Shown here: piece by piece, positions 1,447 through 7,452 of the stretch
Numbering within the stretch: position 1 is the first letter of the stretch
Layout of the letters: every line of letters begins with the position of its first letter
Sequence record: OP251154.1
Strand: one strand, 5' to 3'
DNA length: 45,171 nucleotides
Origin: Escherichia phage TR2
Position numbers and translations under genes: made by a program
The notes under the pieces: model-generated
The model's input: only the letters and a program-made list of their open reading frames with translations
Databases searched by the model: none
Told to the model about the DNA's origin: nothing

Positions 1447-1581
1447 TTATAGTTCGTTAGAATGCGTTTTAGCATCGTCTACGGCTGCCGAAATAATGTA
1501 AATAATCGCGAAGCCCAGAGACCACAACAACCATGGTAAAGCCTCAACTAAAACCTCGTCAATCATAAGTTCCGTGTGCAT
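1447..1581 (-). CDS. small predicted membrane protein (44 aa)
   Basis: Manually translated minus ORF MHTELMIDEVLVEALPWLLWSLGFAIIYIISAAV... with one hydrophobic helix. Confidence 0.4.
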   Translation of the reverse strand: MHTELMIDEVLVEALPWLLWSLGFAIIYIISAAVDDAKTHSNEL

Positions 1582-1591
1582 CTTGTTTTCC

Positions 1592-1771
1592 TTAAATCTT
1601 GTTCAATTGCTCAAGAATTTCGTAAGCCAGTTCTCTAGCTTGCTCTTCTGTTAAGTGGATGGTGTGAACTTGAGGTTCGTCACGCATTCCGCAAGCCTGA
1701 GCAATGATGAATGTTGCGTAGCCGTCGGAGTGGTTAGCCTGAAGTTTTGGTTCTGATTGTCGGAATCTCAT
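1592..1771 (-). CDS. small hypothetical protein (59 aa)
   Basis: Manually translated minus ORF MRFRQSEPKLQANHSDGYATF...; ATGA start/stop overlap with upstream gene (1768-1771). Confidence 0.45.
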   Translation of the reverse strand: MRFRQSEPKLQANHSDGYATFIIAQACGMRDEPQVHTIHLTEEQARELAYEILEQLNKI

Positions 1772-1977
1772 TCTTCAATTACCTCGTATTCGCCTTCTTG
1801 CAAACTAATCTCGTTGCCGATTGTTACTAAATCAGTATCACGAATCGCCTGAACTGATAAGCTACCATCTTTATACTTACCGGAAACATCAACAATATCA
1901 CCAACCTGGAAACCGCAATCAGCAAGGCTAAGTTCGTCACCATCAGCAATGTCAACTTCAATAATCTTTATTCTCAT
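1768..1977 (-). CDS. hypothetical protein (69 aa)
   Basis: ORF track; first gene after a promoter cassette. Confidence 0.5.
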   Translation of the reverse strand: MRIKIIEVDIADGDELSLADCGFQVGDIVDVSGKYKDGSLSVQAIRDTDLVTIGNEISLQEGEYEVIEE

Positions 1978-2008
1978 CTCTATACTCCATCGTGTTGTCG
2001 ATGTGGTA

Positions 2009-2051
2009 ATTATGCCGGATTTCTCCGGCGATTGTTTAGCAATTCGTGCTA
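2009..2051 (-). promoter_or_regulatory. operator/-10 promoter cassette (TAGCA-N5-TGCTA, 22-nt spacer, CATAAT)
   Basis: Plus 2037-2051 TAGCAattcgTGCTA; -10 at plus 2009-2014; leader CATCGACAACACGA then ATG at 1977. Confidence 0.55.
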
Positions 2052-2531
2052 TTGTCCATTCAGGAGTAATTTAGCTTCCCGATAAAACTCCATCGCCGCC
2101 TCAACCTCTTCCTCGCTGTACCGCAAGTGGTATGGTAGTCTACTAGGATGCTTACCTTCGTAGACCTTGAAGTTAGGCTCCCAACACTCATTGAGTATTG
2201 CGGGGTGAACATAAACCTTATCGCCAATTAGACATGTAACATTCATCTTGTCGAGCTCTGGGATTAGCTTGTCCTTGATGAGCAACATCACTCCATTACG
2301 CCCAACAAAAGGCTTAACCTTTCGAGCTCCTTCATATACAGACCTGACACCAACCACTCCTTTCCCGTTAACTCCCATCTTCCTGATGATTTTAATTAGC
2401 ACACCAAGCTCATCACCTGAGTACACATCTGACGTATCAATCGAACCCCAGAATGGCGTTGACTGACGATACCCATTTGCATTTATTACGATTCTGACTG
2501 GCGAAAGTCCATCTTGCCTGGCGATATTCAT
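2049..2531 (-). CDS. internally truncated paralog of the P-loop replication protein at 5132..6715
   Basis: N-terminus (RIVINANGYRQSTPFW) and C-terminal ~70 aa (NGKGVVGVRSVYEGARKVKPF...TCLIGDKVY) match the ends of the 527-aa protein; central Walker-A region absent. Confidence 0.6.
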   Translation of the reverse strand: MNIARQDGLSPVRIVINANGYRQSTPFWGSIDTSDVYSGDELGVLIKIIRKMGVNGKGVVGVRSVYEGARKVKPFVGRNGVMLLIKDKLIPELDKMNVTCLIGDKVYVHPAILNECWEPNFKVYEGKHPSRLPYHLRYSEEEVEAAMEFYREAKLLLNGQ

Positions 2532-2572
2532 TACCTGCTATGCTGTTAGTTTGTCATCGTTAAAGTTAAACA

Positions 2573-3061
2573 TTATTTAATCTCCTCAATAATCAAACGA
2601 TAATCTTTAATTGCTTTCATTGCTGCTGCGAGCGCTTCACCTTCATACTCCGATAGGTCTGGCATGACTTTCGATATCTTAGCCTTGAATTCAGTTATTG
2701 CCTCCACCTTGATTGCGTCATTGGTCTTCTTCCTGATACCAATGTTGGCAGTTCCAGGGATCAGTTTGATAACCAGCCTCTTGCCATCTGATAGCTCTGT
2801 CACGCCGAATTGGCTTTTGCCGCTATCTTCATCATAGTAGTGAGTCGCCTTCATACCTGCGTCTCTCAACTCAGGCATGCGAGCTGTTGTGTTGTAGATG
2901 TATGAGCTCTTAAGCTTCTTAATGGAACCATCTTCACTGCCAATAATGCTTTCAATTTTCCTTAGTGAAACGCTGAATTGCTTATCTTCAGATTTTAGAG
3001 CCTGTTTTACCATCTCGCGAATCACTTGACCCAATGTTGCTTTCTCATTCATGTTTATCAC
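2573..3061 (-). CDS. hypothetical protein (162 aa)
   Basis: ORF track; sigma70-like TTGATT-17-TATGAT upstream on minus strand (around plus 3080-3110). Confidence 0.55.
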   Translation of the reverse strand: MINMNEKATLGQVIREMVKQALKSEDKQFSVSLRKIESIIGSEDGSIKKLKSSYIYNTTARMPELRDAGMKATHYYDEDSGKSQFGVTELSDGKRLVIKLIPGTANIGIRKKTNDAIKVEAITEFKAKISKVMPDLSEYEGEALAAAMKAIKDYRLIIEEIK

Positions 3062-3322
3062 TCCTCTCGTTTAGGTTGAATCCATCATATATCGACTTAC
3101 ACACGTAATCAAGTGTAATTTTTGGTAACTTTTAGGTGTGGTTACGCGAAATGGCATCCTAGCCAAGCTATAGCTAAATGTAGTTTGTGGTAACGCCTGT
3201 AACGCATAAATTGGGTGGGGTTGCCCAATACTGGCTATTTCTTCCATAAAATTGCAGATATGTACTCTGATAGGAAAAAACATATATATAGCAGAAGAGC
3301 ACCAGTTACATGACTTACATAC

Positions 3323-3350
3323 AATAATAATAATAATAATAATAATAATA
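3323..3350. repeat. (AAT)9 microsatellite followed by (AT)7 at 3359-3372
   Basis: Perfect trinucleotide repeat read directly; produces the spurious poly-Ile ORF 3252..3509. Confidence 0.9.
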
Positions 3351-3396
3351 GAAAGAAGATATATATATATATTAAGTACTTATAGTGTAAGTCTAG

Positions 3397-3422
3397 GCGT
3401 AGCTTCGCGTAACTCGCGTAAC
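3397..3422. promoter_or_regulatory. three phased iterons GCGTAGC/GCGTAAC/GCGTAAC
   Basis: Starts at 3397, 3407, 3416 (10- and 9-bp spacing); more GTAACGC/GGTTACG sites at 3126-3210 and 3453-3463. Confidence 0.5.
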
Positions 3423-3542
3423 GATAGTGGTTGGCTTACATCGCGCTACGCCGGTTACGTGTATGCGGCAAAATGGCTCGGCCAGAATAAAAATCAACTT
3501 GTATGGTAGTCCATCCACCATTCATTCACCCTCACATCAATA

Positions 3543-3636
3543 ATTGCAAATTCTGCAACAATCAAAAAAATCATTGCATCAGATGCAATATTGCTATATG
3601 TGCAATAATGAGATGAATCATTGCAATAACTGCAAT
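3543..3636. promoter_or_regulatory. array of three ATTGCA-N5-TGCAAT palindromic operator-like sites
   Basis: Sites at 3543-3559 (ATTGCAaattcTGCAAC), 3573-3589 (ATTGCAtcagaTGCAAT), 3620-3636 (ATTGCAataacTGCAAT); same GCA-N5-TGC core as the promoter operator. Confidence 0.5.
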
Positions 3637-3655
3637 AATACATAAACCCAACGAA

Positions 3656-3699
3656 TAGCACTTTTTGCTAATGACAAACATTGGTAACGAGACCATAAT
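3656..3699 (+). promoter_or_regulatory. operator/-10 promoter cassette for the plus-strand early operon
   Basis: TAGCActtttTGCTA at 3656-3670, 23-nt spacer, CATAAT at 3694-3699, leader CATCAACAACGAGGAGAG, ATG at 3727. Confidence 0.55.
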
Positions 3700-3726
3700 G
3701 AATCCATCAACAACGAGGAGAGAGAT

Positions 3727-3924
3727 ATGAAACTTAAAGACGAAGCGTATGAGCAGCTAAAGCAGGAATGCGCTCTGATTGGGTTGAACGAGATGTACAG
3801 CGATATGGTTTTGCGCGGCAAGATTGATATTGACCTCGCTAAGCAATTCCAGTCAGATGATGAGTATCTATGTTGTGATGGCTTGGGCTGTGACGAATGT
3901 TTACCCTGGCAAGGAATGAGATGA
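3727..3924 (+). CDS. hypothetical protein (65 aa)
   Basis: ORF track; first gene of plus-strand operon. Confidence 0.5.
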   Translation: MKLKDEAYEQLKQECALIGLNEMYSDMVLRGKIDIDLAKQFQSDDEYLCCDGLGCDECLPWQGMR

Positions 3925-4115
3925 TGAAAGTTAAGTGCTTAAATAATCTTAATGATGGAACCTGGGAATTTAGAAACGGAAAGCATTACATTTATGATGA
4001 AATTTATGGTTACGTAGTTGGTGACAACTTCAAACCAGTTTACTGCTACATTGATGATGGACGTGTCATTGCAGCAATTAAAAATAGGCTTATTTTTGAA
4101 ACAGTAGAAGGTTAG
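3921..4115 (+). CDS. hypothetical protein (64 aa)
   Basis: ORF track frame; start moved to ATG 3921 (ATGATGA overlap with upstream stop, AAGGAA SD). Confidence 0.5.
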   Translation: MMKVKCLNNLNDGTWEFRNGKHYIYDEIYGYVVGDNFKPVYCYIDDGRVIAAIKNRLIFETVEG

Positions 4116-4116
4116 C

Positions 4117-4320
4117 ATGAAACTACTTTGCACCAATATCATTAAAGACTTTAACGACGCGTTCAATAAGGGCTCTGAATACAACGCTACCGATTTCAAA
4201 GATGACATGTGCCTTGTTACCGGAGAGCGTCCACATAAGCATCACGACACGTTTCAGGCTCTTAAATGCCTTGATTACGTCGTCATCCCAGGAATCGCAA
4301 CTTTTAAGGTGATTGAATAA
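4117..4320 (+). CDS. hypothetical protein (67 aa)
   Basis: ORF track; tightly packed in operon. Confidence 0.5.
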   Translation: MKLLCTNIIKDFNDAFNKGSEYNATDFKDDMCLVTGERPHKHHDTFQALKCLDYVVIPGIATFKVIE

Positions 4321-4481
4321 TGCTATTACCATCTGAGATTAACTATTTTGATCTGGAAGTTATTAGTTCTTACAGCGGCAAGGGCTGGCCTTGCGGGGAA
4401 TGGTTCAACGAGGACTTGCTTGAATCTCACGAGATTATGCTTAAGGCGATTGAGAAGGCGAGAAATAGCACGAATTGCTAA
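4320..4481 (+). CDS. small hypothetical protein (53 aa)
   Basis: Manually translated MLLPSEINYFDLEV...ARNSTNC; ATG overlaps upstream stop; last codons are the operator sequence. Confidence 0.45.
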   Translation: MLLPSEINYFDLEVISSYSGKGWPCGEWFNEDLLESHEIMLKAIEKARNSTNC

Positions 4482-4508
4482 AGCCCTTCGGGGCTTTTGT
4501 TGTATAGT
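4466..4508 (+). promoter_or_regulatory. operator/-10 promoter cassette
   Basis: TAGCAcgaatTGCTA at 4466-4480, 22-nt spacer holding hairpin GCCCttcgGGGC plus T-run, TATAGT at 4503-4508, then CATCGAAACGAAA. Confidence 0.55.
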
Positions 4509-4540
4509 TTCCTCATCGAAACGAAAGAGAACAAGTAATC

Positions 4541-4705
4541 ATGTTTGACAACTTTTACGACGCGATGGAAGAGGCAGTTTTCAGGGCCTCGCTTGATGGA
4601 AAGATTTACGGTTTAGTTCAGAAAGTTGATAAGATTGTTGTGCGTATCGTGCGCAAATCAGTACCAAACAAATTCATGTGGACTACAAAAGAGAGGGCTG
4701 AATAA
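4541..4705 (+). CDS. small hypothetical protein (54 aa)
   Basis: Manually translated MFDNFYDAMEEAVFRASLDGK...; TAATG overlap with next gene. Confidence 0.45.
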   Translation: MFDNFYDAMEEAVFRASLDGKIYGLVQKVDKIVVRIVRKSVPNKFMWTTKERAE

Positions 4706-5058
4706 TGACTACTACCATAACTAAAAATTTCATTAGCAAAGACAACCAACTGTTTAAAGCTCGCGTTAAAGATGGTGTCGAGCAAATCAAGAAAGATGGC
4801 AAATGGGTTAATCTGGAAGAACGTGGTAAATACATTAAGACCAGAACGCTTTACGTGACACATGTTAACCACAAATCTGGCGTTAAGAAGTATTTCAAAG
4901 AAGGAAAGAGATACCAGGTGCTAATGCATAGCGGGATGGGTCAGTCTGCTGGTTACATTTACGACGAAGATGGTAATGCATGGCAGCTATATCGAAGCGA
5001 AGATGTTGGTTTCTACACTCTTTGCCAGACTTACCTATTTGAATCATCTTACAAATAG
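4705..5058 (+). CDS. hypothetical protein (117 aa)
   Basis: ORF track. Confidence 0.55.
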   Translation: MTTTITKNFISKDNQLFKARVKDGVEQIKKDGKWVNLEERGKYIKTRTLYVTHVNHKSGVKKYFKEGKRYQVLMHSGMGQSAGYIYDEDGNAWQLYRSEDVGFYTLCQTYLFESSYK

Positions 5059-5101
5059 CAGCACGAATTGATAATGCATTATAAGCGGCTGTTGATATAA
5101 T
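5059..5101 (+). promoter_or_regulatory. operator/-10 promoter cassette
   Basis: CAGCAcgaatTGATA at 5059-5073, 22-nt spacer, TATAAT at 5096-5101, ATG at 5132. Confidence 0.55.
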
Positions 5102-5131
5102 GGCCGCTCAGAAACAATACGGAGAGAAGTA

Positions 5132-6715
5132 ATGTTTGATTTCAACGAAGATAAACTATCTGTTGAACAAGTTATGGCGATTGCCGCGACCGACAACCTC
5201 CCACCGCTTCGCGTTGCCATTAATGCAAATGGCTATCGGCAGTCTCAATCATTCTGGAAAACACCTGTGGAGATTGACGCAGGTAATGACAAGTACCCTG
5301 TAATATCTCTAGGCAATGACATTGATGTTGTTGGTAAGCTCTCGGCAAATATTGCTCGCTCAGTTCAGTTCCCAGAGTCATCAGCATACATGCACTTTTT
5401 GGGTTGTGTGTCCGCTGCGATGCTAGGGCGCTTTACTGTTGAGTATCACGGAACCCAGCAGCCAACATCGCTTTACGTGGTAACTAGCCAGCCGCCATCT
5501 ACTGGTAAGTCAGCCATTAACTCTCTGTCAATTGCGCCAATGATTGCTGAGACTGAGCGTTTGAACGAGGTGCGTAAACGTGACCGCAAAAAGATTATGG
5601 CTAAGCTGTCTGCGCTAGCAAAAGAAATGAAACAGGAGAAGTCACCATCTGAGATGGCTTCACTGTTTGAGGAGAAGGAAGATTTAGAGGAAAAGCTCGA
5701 GAAGCTGTGCGATATCGTATTCCCGGTCTCAGATACTACGCCAGAAGGTCTTGCACGAATCAACAACCGCCAGGGTAACTTTGCGGTCATCTCGGATGAG
5801 GCAACAAGCGTCAACTCATTATTGGGCATGACATACGGTGATGGTTCCAAGAAAACGAACAGCGAGCTTGTACTTAAAGCGTGGGATGCTGGTAACGTAT
5901 CTATTGCCCGCGCTAACGCAGAAAACAACATGAGTTTCGTGGCAATGGGGTGCATCTCTGTAATTGCTCAGGATGAAACAATCAATGCGATTATGAATGC
6001 TGGTGCGCGTGGTATTGGTGTTTCCGAGCGTTTCCTTCTGGTGCGTGAAAAGTCATTTCTTGGAGACCGCGTGTTTGTTGATGAGAATGGCGATTCAACA
6101 TACGAGGCTATTGATGATGGTCTTAAAGCAGACTATTTCCGTCTCGTTCATGAAATTATGAATGAAGTTGAAGTGAAACTGACAGTAAGTGCGTCATCCA
6201 TGCGCTACCTTAACCGAGCTCGCCAGGAAATGGAACCGCATCTTGGTGATGGCGGTAAATATTCCCACACGATGTTACGTGGTGCTCTTGGTAAATTTGA
6301 TAAGCAAGCAATCCGTATTGCCTCAGTATTGCACGTTATTCGCAACTGGTTCGCACCGGCAGGGTCGAGTCCGCAGAAATCAAGAGAGATTGAGCTTGAA
6401 ACAATGCAAGAAGCGGTTATGATTTTCCACGAGTTAAGCAAGACTTATTTGTCGTCCGCTAGTGCTGCTGGTCATGCTGGTGATAATGCTGAAATGAATA
6501 AGCTGGTTGATATCCTGATTAAGCAAGGTAAGAATGGGAAGGGTGTTGTTGGCGTTCGCTCACTGTATGAAGCAGCACGCAAAGTTAAACCTTTTGAAGG
6601 ACAGGCTGGCGTAATGACTCGCATCAAGGACCACTTGGTTCCTATGCTTGATGAGAAAAACTATACATGCCTGATTGGTGATAAGATTTACATTAATCCG
6701 CGATTGTTGGGGTGA
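5132..6715 (+). CDS. putative replication initiator/helicase-like P-loop NTPase (527 aa)
   Basis: Walker-A-like TSQPPSTGKSA; has its own promoter cassette; N- and C-terminal segments duplicated in 2049..2531. Confidence 0.6.
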   Translation: MFDFNEDKLSVEQVMAIAATDNLPPLRVAINANGYRQSQSFWKTPVEIDAGNDKYPVISLGNDIDVVGKLSANIARSVQFPESSAYMHFLGCVSAAMLGRFTVEYHGTQQPTSLYVVTSQPPSTGKSAINSLSIAPMIAETERLNEVRKRDRKKIMAKLSALAKEMKQEKSPSEMASLFEEKEDLEEKLEKLCDIVFPVSDTTPEGLARINNRQGNFAVISDEATSVNSLLGMTYGDGSKKTNSELVLKAWDAGNVSIARANAENNMSFVAMGCISVIAQDETINAIMNAGARGIGVSERFLLVREKSFLGDRVFVDENGDSTYEAIDDGLKADYFRLVHEIMNEVEVKLTVSASSMRYLNRARQEMEPHLGDGGKYSHTMLRGALGKFDKQAIRIASVLHVIRNWFAPAGSSPQKSREIELETMQEAVMIFHELSKTYLSSASAAGHAGDNAEMNKLVDILIKQGKNGKGVVGVRSLYEAARKVKPFEGQAGVMTRIKDHLVPMLDEKNYTCLIGDKIYINPRLLG

Positions 6716-6718
6716 TAG

Positions 6719-7054
6719 ATGTTTCTACTCGACGTATACAAGTTCTGCGAAGGATACAGGAACTTCAACCGCCAGCACCTGGCAAGATTCATCTACAAGC
6801 ACAAGGATTGTGCAAGGATGGCTAAGGCCGCTGGAGTTGATGAAAGGTATTTTGCATCTAGTTGCTCGAAGGAGTTTATGGCGAGAATGCTTACGGCTGG
6901 TTATCTTGATGGAGTTAATGGCGTGTACTGGTCAAAGGGTTCAGGCAAGAGGCCATTCCAGTTTGAGTTTATGAGCCTTGAAGGTAAGTCTAGTGCTTAT
7001 GTTAATGAGATGATGAATATAGCAACCATGAGTGACGAAGAATTGTTTGCATAA
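6719..7054 (+). CDS. hypothetical protein (111 aa)
   Basis: ORF track; last gene before bidirectional terminator. Confidence 0.5.
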   Translation: MFLLDVYKFCEGYRNFNRQHLARFIYKHKDCARMAKAAGVDERYFASSCSKEFMARMLTAGYLDGVNGVYWSKGSGKRPFQFEFMSLEGKSSAYVNEMMNIATMSDEELFA

Positions 7055-7082
7055 AAATAGCCCCATTACGGGGCTTTTTTGT
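7053..7082. terminator. bidirectional rho-independent terminator
   Basis: A-run, GCCCC-attac-GGGGC hairpin, T-run; between convergent genes. Confidence 0.7.
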
Positions 7083-7452
7083 TTTTCCTGAATATTACCA
7101 AAAGCAGAATGATGATGATGCACAACATAATTCCACTTCCAACCCACGGGATTGCAGAAGAATCATTGTTTGTGATTTCAATCTTCTCAGCTGTGATTGT
7201 TGACGCTTTGATTGAGTTATCAGAAGTCTTCTTACCGCTTGAGCTATCAAGAGTGTCAACATTAGAGTTCTTCAACTCAGCCTTTGCATTGGAACTTGAA
7301 TCAACCTTGTTTGTCAGACCTACGCCAACCTTATTGTTCTCCGCTCCAGCCTGGGCGCTAATCTCTGGCTTACTGCCAATCAATCCGGTCAGTGCTGATG
7401 TTGCCGAACAACCAGAAAGAAGAATTGCCGCAGCAATTAATACAGTCTTCAT
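7066..7452 (-). CDS. unimolecular spanin (T1 gp11-like)
   Basis: N-terminal lipoprotein signal with lipobox LSGC plus C-terminal transmembrane helix (IMLCIIIILLLVIF); sits downstream of the endolysin. Confidence 0.6.
   Translation of the reverse strand: MKTVLIAAAILLSGCSATSALTGLIGSKPEISAQAGAENNKVGVGLTNKVDSSSNAKAELKNSNVDTLDSSSGKKTSDNSIKASTITAEKIEITNNDSSAIPWVGSGIMLCIIIILLLVIFRKNKKAP

Follow-up and report, generated by a model that had tools for sequence, protein, structure and literature searches.

Why would a phage keep, alongside its likely replicative helicase, a second gene that encodes both ends of this helicase and none of its motor? The question is raised by two genes of Escherichia phage TR2 (OP251154.1), whose 45,171-nucleotide sequence we refer to as the window. 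A small gene at 2049..2531 on the minus strand encodes 160 amino acids and ends in TAG; a larger gene at 5132..6715 on the plus strand encodes 527 amino acids. The initial annotation, made from the letters alone, took the small product for a domain-deleted paralog of a 527-aa replication initiator, encoded on the opposite strand, and suggested that it could serve as a dominant-negative or specificity subunit. Over positions 1500-7100, the window matches Escherichia phage TR3 (PP069512.1; Drexlerviridae, Braunvirinae) with 100% identity and CY1_Cui-2023 with 99.7%. In TR3, the 160-aa product is deposited as hypothetical protein WVX92986.1 and the 527-aa product as 'DUF3987 domain-containing protein'. 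We refer to the small protein as mini.

The 527-aa protein is a likely replicative helicase

The larger gene encodes a DUF3987 protein of the MCM-like helicase superfamily SF6. Its residues 81-432 match PF13148 (DUF3987) with E=1.4e-40, above the gathering score. This AAA+ core (5372..6427, plus strand) contains the Walker A motif GKS at 5504-5512, whose residues G125, K126 and S127 are invariant; E223 is invariant too, and the adjoining D222 nearly so. The AlphaFold model is confident (pLDDT 88, pTM 0.86) and finds its best Foldseek matches in MCM2-7 subunits (E down to 4e-6, TM about 0.35). The core is preceded by an N-module, residues 1-45 (5132..5266, plus strand), modelled as three short helices (11-21, 25-33 and 36-41), and followed by a C-terminal winged-helix (WH) domain, residues 448-527 (6473..6712, plus strand), in which the model runs alpha-beta-alpha-alpha-beta-beta over residues 451-521. 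It is the combination of PF13148, Walker A/B, an MCM-like AAA+ fold and a C-terminal wHTH that places the protein among the DUF3987/SF6 helicases.

DUF3987 proteins have been described as SF6 helicases that are distant kin of MCM and carry a C-terminal wHTH (PMC4889955), and a distant relative, a PriCT-DUF3987 protein, was shown to be a 5'-3' helicase (PMC11724360). Because the phage genome encodes a separate primase and no polymerase, the 527-aa protein is likely its replicative helicase. The protein is thus a replication protein, as first supposed, but 'replicative helicase of the DUF3987/SF6 type' describes it better than 'initiator': an initiator role would be an analogy to the Rep proteins of SaPIs, not a result. 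The literature that we searched defines no replication origin for any T1-like phage.

Mini joins both ends of the helicase and lacks its ATPase core

Which parts of this helicase recur in mini? BLASTP finds two blocks, in agreement with the N- and C-terminal segments noted at the outset. Mini residues 1-28 (2448..2531, minus strand), which include the motif INANGYRQS..FW, align to helicase residues 15-42 (E=2e-11), and mini residues 37-113 (2193..2423, minus strand) align to helicase residues 448-526 with 61% identity (E=2e-29). Compared with 500 shuffles, the N block scores 96 versus 26+/-4 (z=17) and the C block 246 versus 30+/-5 (z=44). The matching stretches are not of low complexity, and profile-profile alignment of the two families by hhalign gives the C block a probability of 99.6%. 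This block represents the C-terminus of the helicase, but not, as had been assumed, that of mini, which continues for another 47 residues (114-160; 2052..2192, minus strand). The tail carries a family-wide terminal amphipathic helix, EEVE.A..FYR.AK.LL, and is among the best-conserved parts of the protein in the close family. Against the helicase it scores at the background of the 500 shuffles, and tblastn detects no counterpart in the helicase or in the rest of the window; derivation of the tail from another gene of a TR3-type genome was rejected on this ground.

The absence of a Walker A core from mini was borne out. There is no DUF3987 match, no P-loop and no GKS/T in its sequence, so that neither PF13148 nor Walker A/B, the marks of a DUF3987/SF6 helicase, is present. 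Having no DUF3987 domain, no Walker A/B and no lid, mini is predicted to be incapable of binding ATP or of acting as an ATPase or helicase. The protein has no Pfam match at E<=0.1 and its segments have none at E<=10; the modules and the tail likewise retrieve nothing from Pfam (E<=10), NCBIfam or PDB sequence searches.

Do the shared segments adopt a common fold? The predicted model of mini is weak (pLDDT 55), and its secondary-structure elements still mirror those of the helicase model one for one. The WH modules of the two models have the alpha-beta-alpha-alpha-beta-beta order in common, and in predicted structure the shared C-module shows the alpha1-beta1-alpha2-alpha3-beta2-beta3 topology and superposes on known WH domains. 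Foldseek searches with the weak mini model returned no significant match; the non-significant ones were almost all winged-helix proteins. The WH module of mini is basic (+6, pI 9.8), as is that of the helicase, and the N-modules and tails of minis are mostly acidic.

Mini is a full-length member of phrog_7327 (PHROGs v4), a family without a function annotation, which it matches with E=4.6e-64 (residues 1-160 against positions 15-179 of a 179-position profile). The match leaves out the first 14 positions, which represent a severed leader, described below. When this leader is restored, the N-terminal homology extends from the first residue, mini 1-69 aligning to helicase 1-73 with E=6e-16. Alignments of nine genome pairs show the same layout: helicase residues 1-45 are fused almost directly to residues ~448-527, colinear from Met1, followed by the private tail. 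This architecture of N-module, WH and tail is kept in phrog_7327 relatives down to 33% identity. Set against the DUF3987 helicases at large (PF13148; phrog_2373), mini shares their N-terminal 45-70 residues and C-terminal WH and has the lineage-specific residues of its own subfamilies' helicases, whereas it is without the DUF3987 domain, Walker A/B and lid, adds a conserved tail of its own and has evolved 5-8 times faster. BLASTP, shuffles and hhalign all point the same way: the small gene is, as judged by homology, a paralog of the helicase that has kept both terminal modules and lost the ATPase core by deletion, as originally proposed.

Names attached to genes in and around this family call for caution. 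The mini homolog of UDF157lw (CDS 1036-1596) is deposited as 'HEPN domain-containing protein', for which Pfam and NCBIfam give the family no support. A 69-aa ORF downstream of mini (1768-1977, minus strand) is named 'methyltransferase' in TR3, TR1 and CY1, a name that looks unreliable. Two distant proteins, P0281 (222 aa) and P0283 (185 aa), have the winged helix of the helicase type at their C-terminus and different N-terminal parts, that of P0281 with a GVGKT P-loop. Both could be assembly fragments or further shortened derivatives of the helicase.

A severed leader and recurrent nonsense codons

The family reading frame starts 42 nt upstream of the 160-aa ORF, and its codon 12 is TAG in this genome. 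The severed leader (2538..2573, minus strand) consists of an ATG at 2573-2571, opening 11 sense codons (MFNFNDDKLTA), and the TAG at 2540-2538; its ATG overlaps the TAA of the upstream DUF7174 gene as TAATG, and GAGGAG lies 8 nt upstream of the ATG. The conserved Met15, 6 nt past the leader TAG, is the first residue of the 160-aa ORF. Most homologs are about 174 aa long and start with MFDFNEDKLT.EQVM, the counterpart of helicase residues 1-14. The length of 160 aa therefore holds for the ORF as read, which represents an N-terminally cut form of a ~174-aa family protein.

How common are such interruptions? The TAG at codon 12 is also found in CY1 and in four SRA-derived contigs (L002-L005), and these four contigs have a second TAG at codon 44. 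Two other lineages (L015 and L016) carry TAG at codon 6 and codon 7. Leader ambers thus occur in frame in three independent lineages, at codons 12, 6 and 7, and in each case the conserved Met15 lies downstream. In TR1, the mini gene is uninterrupted and the helicase nearly identical to that of TR3. In the Veterinaerplatzvirus clade, for example vB_EcoS-12397II (L008), a TGA at codon 141 truncates the tail, and an intact tail is still in frame downstream, which looks like a recent nonsense mutation. The vB_EcoS-12397II lineage makes up most of 43 records from E. coli DSM 12242. Frameshifted fragments also occur among the database matches to the family.

All four early stops are amber, for which chance gives about 1 in 8 to 1 in 16; chance, read-through or growth on supE laboratory hosts may account for it. 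We found no suppressor tRNA, the only tRNA gene of the genome being tRNA-Arg(CCT), and rejected reading of the ambers by a phage suppressor tRNA. The 187-aa protein P0001 assigned to contigs L002-L005 is a gene-caller artefact in which three TAGs, including the true stop, were read as Gln (code-15-type); under table 11 these loci do not yield that protein.

On the simplest reading, mini can do without its first 14 residues, and nonsense codons among them are nearly neutral because translation would re-initiate at Met15. By this route, 6 nt after the stop, we infer that the 160-aa product arises. In the helicase model, residues 1-5 are of low confidence and residues 1-10 are non-helical. Taken over several lineages, the nonsense codons show that the phages can do without the mini gene itself, at any rate on their isolation hosts.

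Mini occupies a variable slot in the leftward early operon

Mini belongs to a narrow family. An exhaustive profile search of 1.84 billion representatives returned only 47 matches: full-length minis in about ten clusters at 50% identity, the helicases of Drexlerviridae and some fragments. In the phage collection searched, 111 records contain mini, 129 contain DUF7174 and 406 contain a helicase with the matching WH. The carriers of mini are Braunvirinae, Rogunavirinae and Nouzillyvirus; the helicase alone is found in T1- and TLS-type phages. We found no paper in the literature searched that derives phrog_7327 from helicase termini, and the Druantia/Zorya preprint contains nothing on the mini gene.

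In every genome inspected, mini directly follows DUF7174 in a leftward early operon, and the helicase gene lies in the opposing rightward operon. The partner, DUF7174 (PF23796; phrog_4841), extends over 2573..3061 on the minus strand and shares bases of its stop codon with the ATG of the mini leader. Mini is thus, by its gene order, the second cistron of the leftward early operon, with translation presumably coupled to that of DUF7174 via TAATG. DUF7174 is as variable as mini: it is less than 60% identical in 113 of the 129 records, and the copy in the window is only 35% identical to that of BEK1-1, whose helicase is nearly the same. A PDB sequence search found no relative of DUF7174, and other resources offer no structural or functional annotation of it. 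The whole mini locus sits among small hypervariable early genes. In Shigella phage Sd1 (L017), an unrelated 67-aa ORF (6189-6392) fills the slot after DUF7174 and keeps only the MFDLDE start of the mini family, which suggests recombination at the start of the gene and a slot for swappable cargo.

An ancient duplication followed by independent exchange

How old is the duplication? Within TR3, mini and the homologous helicase segments are 61-62% identical in nucleotides, their longest common word is 11 nt, dS is saturated and dN is about 0.34. The saturated dS combined with a dN of about 0.34 implies that constraint has acted on the shared modules ever since the duplication, which these values date as ancient and without recent conversion. 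Among phages, omega is 0.12-0.24 for mini and 0.02-0.04 for the helicase and its termini. By this measure mini is a genuine accessory gene under purifying selection, and it evolves 5-8 times faster than the helicase.

Does mini follow the helicase of its own genome? In nine genomes, helicase termini are 85-100% identical and minis 39-82%. The own-minus-other identity computed from these matrices is about 0 for both modules, so minis show no excess likeness to their own helicase; even AKS96-type minis, which look more helicase-like, do not favour their own helicase over others. On the basis of this zero difference, the saturated dS and the shared words of at most 11 nt, we rejected own-genome co-evolution or gene conversion. 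Between TR3 and TR1, dS is 0.006 for the helicase and 0.82 for mini; between UDF157lw and AKS96, the helicase has a dS of 0.06 and mini a dN of 0.53. Such divergent minis next to near-identical helicases indicate that the mini locus has been exchanged independently.

In a neighbour-joining tree of the WH (75 columns, no bootstrap), all minis group with the helicases of the mini-bearing subfamilies, apart from the other Drexlerviridae helicases. Minis and these helicases share the derived states CLIGDK.Y and NGKGVVG.RS. This pattern fits a single duplication in the lineage from which Braunvirinae, Rogunavirinae and Nouzillyvirus descend, followed by acceleration of the small copy.

Seven hexamers in the divergent early intergenic region

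The two early operons diverge from an intergenic region of 665 bp with 64% AT. It contains seven ATTGCA/TGCAAT hexamers in both orientations (3543..3636), a candidate protein-binding array that could comprise terminase sites (pac) or origin iterons. Seven copies in 94 bp compare with about 1 per kb genome-wide, and the position of the array is conserved in BEK3, 12397II, p111, AKS96, BEK1-1 and TR1, relatives that span Braunvirinae, Rogunavirus (AKS96) and Nouzillyvirus (p111). The array coincides with the record ends of several relatives. The pac of TR1 has been placed in this region, at 3,615 bp (PMC10450929), and the hexamers may accordingly serve the terminase. Any link between the array and mini is speculative. 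Next to the array, at 3671-3699, is the most promoter-like site of the rightward operon; the promoter scan as a whole found 11 sites versus 9.7 expected in shuffled sequence, and the terminator scan likewise did not rise above shuffled sequence.

Other features of the same region are an (AAT)9 run and (TA)n runs at 3270-3375, a perfect 10-nt inverted repeat, GTTACGCGAA/TTCGCGTAAC, at 3141-3150/3404-3413 with its arms 253 nt apart, and further CGCGTAAC-like copies.

Discussion

What could a helicase without a motor be good for? Our preferred reading, held tentatively and at somewhat less than even confidence, is that mini is an accessory competitor or modulator of helicase loading or of the timing of initiation. 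The helicase gene was duplicated, and an internal deletion of ~400 codons then removed the linker, the AAA+ core and the lid, leaving the three-helix N-module fused to the WH domain, with a new tail that ends in the conserved amphipathic helix. The product would be unable to join the helicase ring but retains, under selection, the two peripheral modules that face the surroundings of the helicase. Because these modules are kept and the parts for ATP and ring formation are gone, mini would most likely occupy the same ligand as the helicase termini, and would do so early in infection. This ligand could be DNA held by the basic WH, as in SaPI Rep, a loading or priming partner, or both; by competing for it, mini would tune the loading of the helicase or the moment of initiation. 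Mini would accordingly be an exchangeable accessory modulator and not an essential subunit. Against this reading stands the behaviour of the alleles, which do not covary with the resident helicase and are swapped independently, unlike a tightly matched regulator. The helicase termini are so conserved (85-100%) that any mini allele might work. The WH of mini evolves several-fold faster than that of the helicase, and the ancestral ligand may therefore have been lost.

An obligate specificity subunit, one of the two roles first suggested, fits poorly. Mini is absent from most Drexlerviridae with the same helicase architecture (111 versus 406 records), an unrelated gene fills its slot in Sd1, several lineages carry nonsense codons, and alleles of mini move between phages irrespective of the helicase, without covarying with it inside a genome.

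The properties that sit awkwardly with a matched regulator are those expected of a gene directed at the host. Mini could be a decoy that mimics the helicase termini and titrates a host factor or an immune sensor, or it could serve another task in host takeover. Its place among small hypervariable genes of an early operon with an equally variable partner, the swapping of its fast-evolving alleles between phages with near-identical helicases, the unrelated gene in the Sd1 slot and its dispensability in isolates all speak for such a role. We nevertheless regard it as somewhat unlikely. No defence system is known to sense DUF3987 helicases; Retron-Eco11, which is triggered by helicases, responds to the SF2 helicases UvsW and D10, and a link to helicase-triggered retron defence was rejected for this reason. 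Omega of mini is well below 1, with no diversifying selection at the level of the whole gene, and the motifs that mini shares with the helicase are core-fold and basic-loop residues, as mere retention of the fold would also leave. A bolder reading, in our view rather improbable, would have mini define a class not described before: a stand-alone, horizontally exchangeable mimic of the helicase termini that licenses or throttles a self-loading MCM-like helicase at an iteron-type origin, or acts as a decoy that protects the helicase from a host sensor. In that case the leader ambers would be due not to neutral decay but to selection, acting on dosage or on the extreme N-terminus with its likeness to the helicase.

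Could mini have left the helicase behind altogether and become a winged-helix transcription factor of the divergent early promoters or of the early-to-middle switch? The WH is basic and belongs to the commonest bacterial DNA-binding fold, the hexamer array adjoins the best promoter candidate at 3671-3699 for the rightward operon, and mini would be expressed from the opposite early operon. A pure DNA-binding role leaves unexplained, however, why selection retained the helicase N-module from Met1; the promoter scan did no better than on shuffled sequence, and the array may be pac. We judge this neo-functionalisation to be unlikely.

Decay to a non-functional relic of the duplication, at least in the TR3 lineage, is less likely still. 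It would account for the TAG at codon 12 in TR3 and CY1, the second TAG at codon 44 in the four SRA-derived contigs, the TAG at codon 6 or 7 in two further lineages, the TGA at codon 141 in the Veterinaerplatzvirus clade and the frameshifted fragments. A non-functional copy of this age would be unrecognisable, though, and the family combines saturated dS with an omega of 0.12-0.24, keeps its architecture, including the private tail, down to 33% identity and is present in 111 records across three taxa; every leader amber, moreover, has the conserved Met15 downstream, so that most of the protein is preserved. Very unlikely, finally, is the classical dominant-negative of the initial annotation, which would co-assemble with helicase protomers and poison the hexamer: mini does share both helicase termini, and the C-terminal domains of SaPI Rep are mobile and contact neighbouring protomers (PMC9371898), but mini has nothing of the AAA+ core, from which the ring and the inter-subunit ATP sites are built, and an early poison of the phage's own conserved and presumably core helicase would be costly.

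How does mini, as the putative modulator of loading, compare with known systems? The nearest systems characterised so far are the SaPI Rep proteins of staphylococcal islands, self-loading MCM-like helicases that read hexanucleotide iterons through their C-terminal WHD; these iterons lie in both orientations about an AT-rich stretch (PMC9371898). The likeness of the present system to SaPI Rep/PriRep5 and SCCmec Cch (PMC9371898) consists of the predicted WH structure and the seven-hexamer array, which is equally explained as pac; unlike the SaPI array, that of TR3 is not immediately downstream of the helicase gene. A parallel in concept is provided by motor-less or shortened co-products of replication or transposition initiators. 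HSV-1 OBPC (the C-terminal DNA-binding part of UL9), phiX174 A*, T7 gp4B and Tn5 Inh are modulators of this kind, nested in-frame products identical in sequence to their parent. We know of no separate motor-less WHD paralog described for SaPI Rep-type systems. Like the nested products, mini is a second polypeptide, presumably made in the same infection, that contains recognition modules and misses part of the catalytic capacity. Unlike them, it does not stem from an internal in-frame start in its parent: it is a separate, diverged gene, 2.6 kb away on the opposite strand and 61-62% identical in nucleotides, with an internal deletion, a tail of its own and independent horizontal exchange. Shortened initiator co-products acting as modulators are thus known; a separate, ancient, internally deleted and horizontally exchanged paralog would be new.

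T1-like phages (Drexlerviridae) occur in abundance and pose a major contamination problem in industrial E. coli fermentations. As a natural excision of the two peripheral modules of their helicase, mini offers a probe for the ligands of these modules, be they origin DNA, primase or host factors. Should it prove inert on laboratory hosts, it would be just one more variable early gene, with its ancestry known. If it modulates the loading of the helicase or shields it, a new regulatory or counter-defence principle would emerge. The evolutionary anatomy of the gene, as read from its homologies, is clear, and makes mini a clean example of how a core replication gene can give rise to a fast-evolving accessory gene through internal domain deletion.
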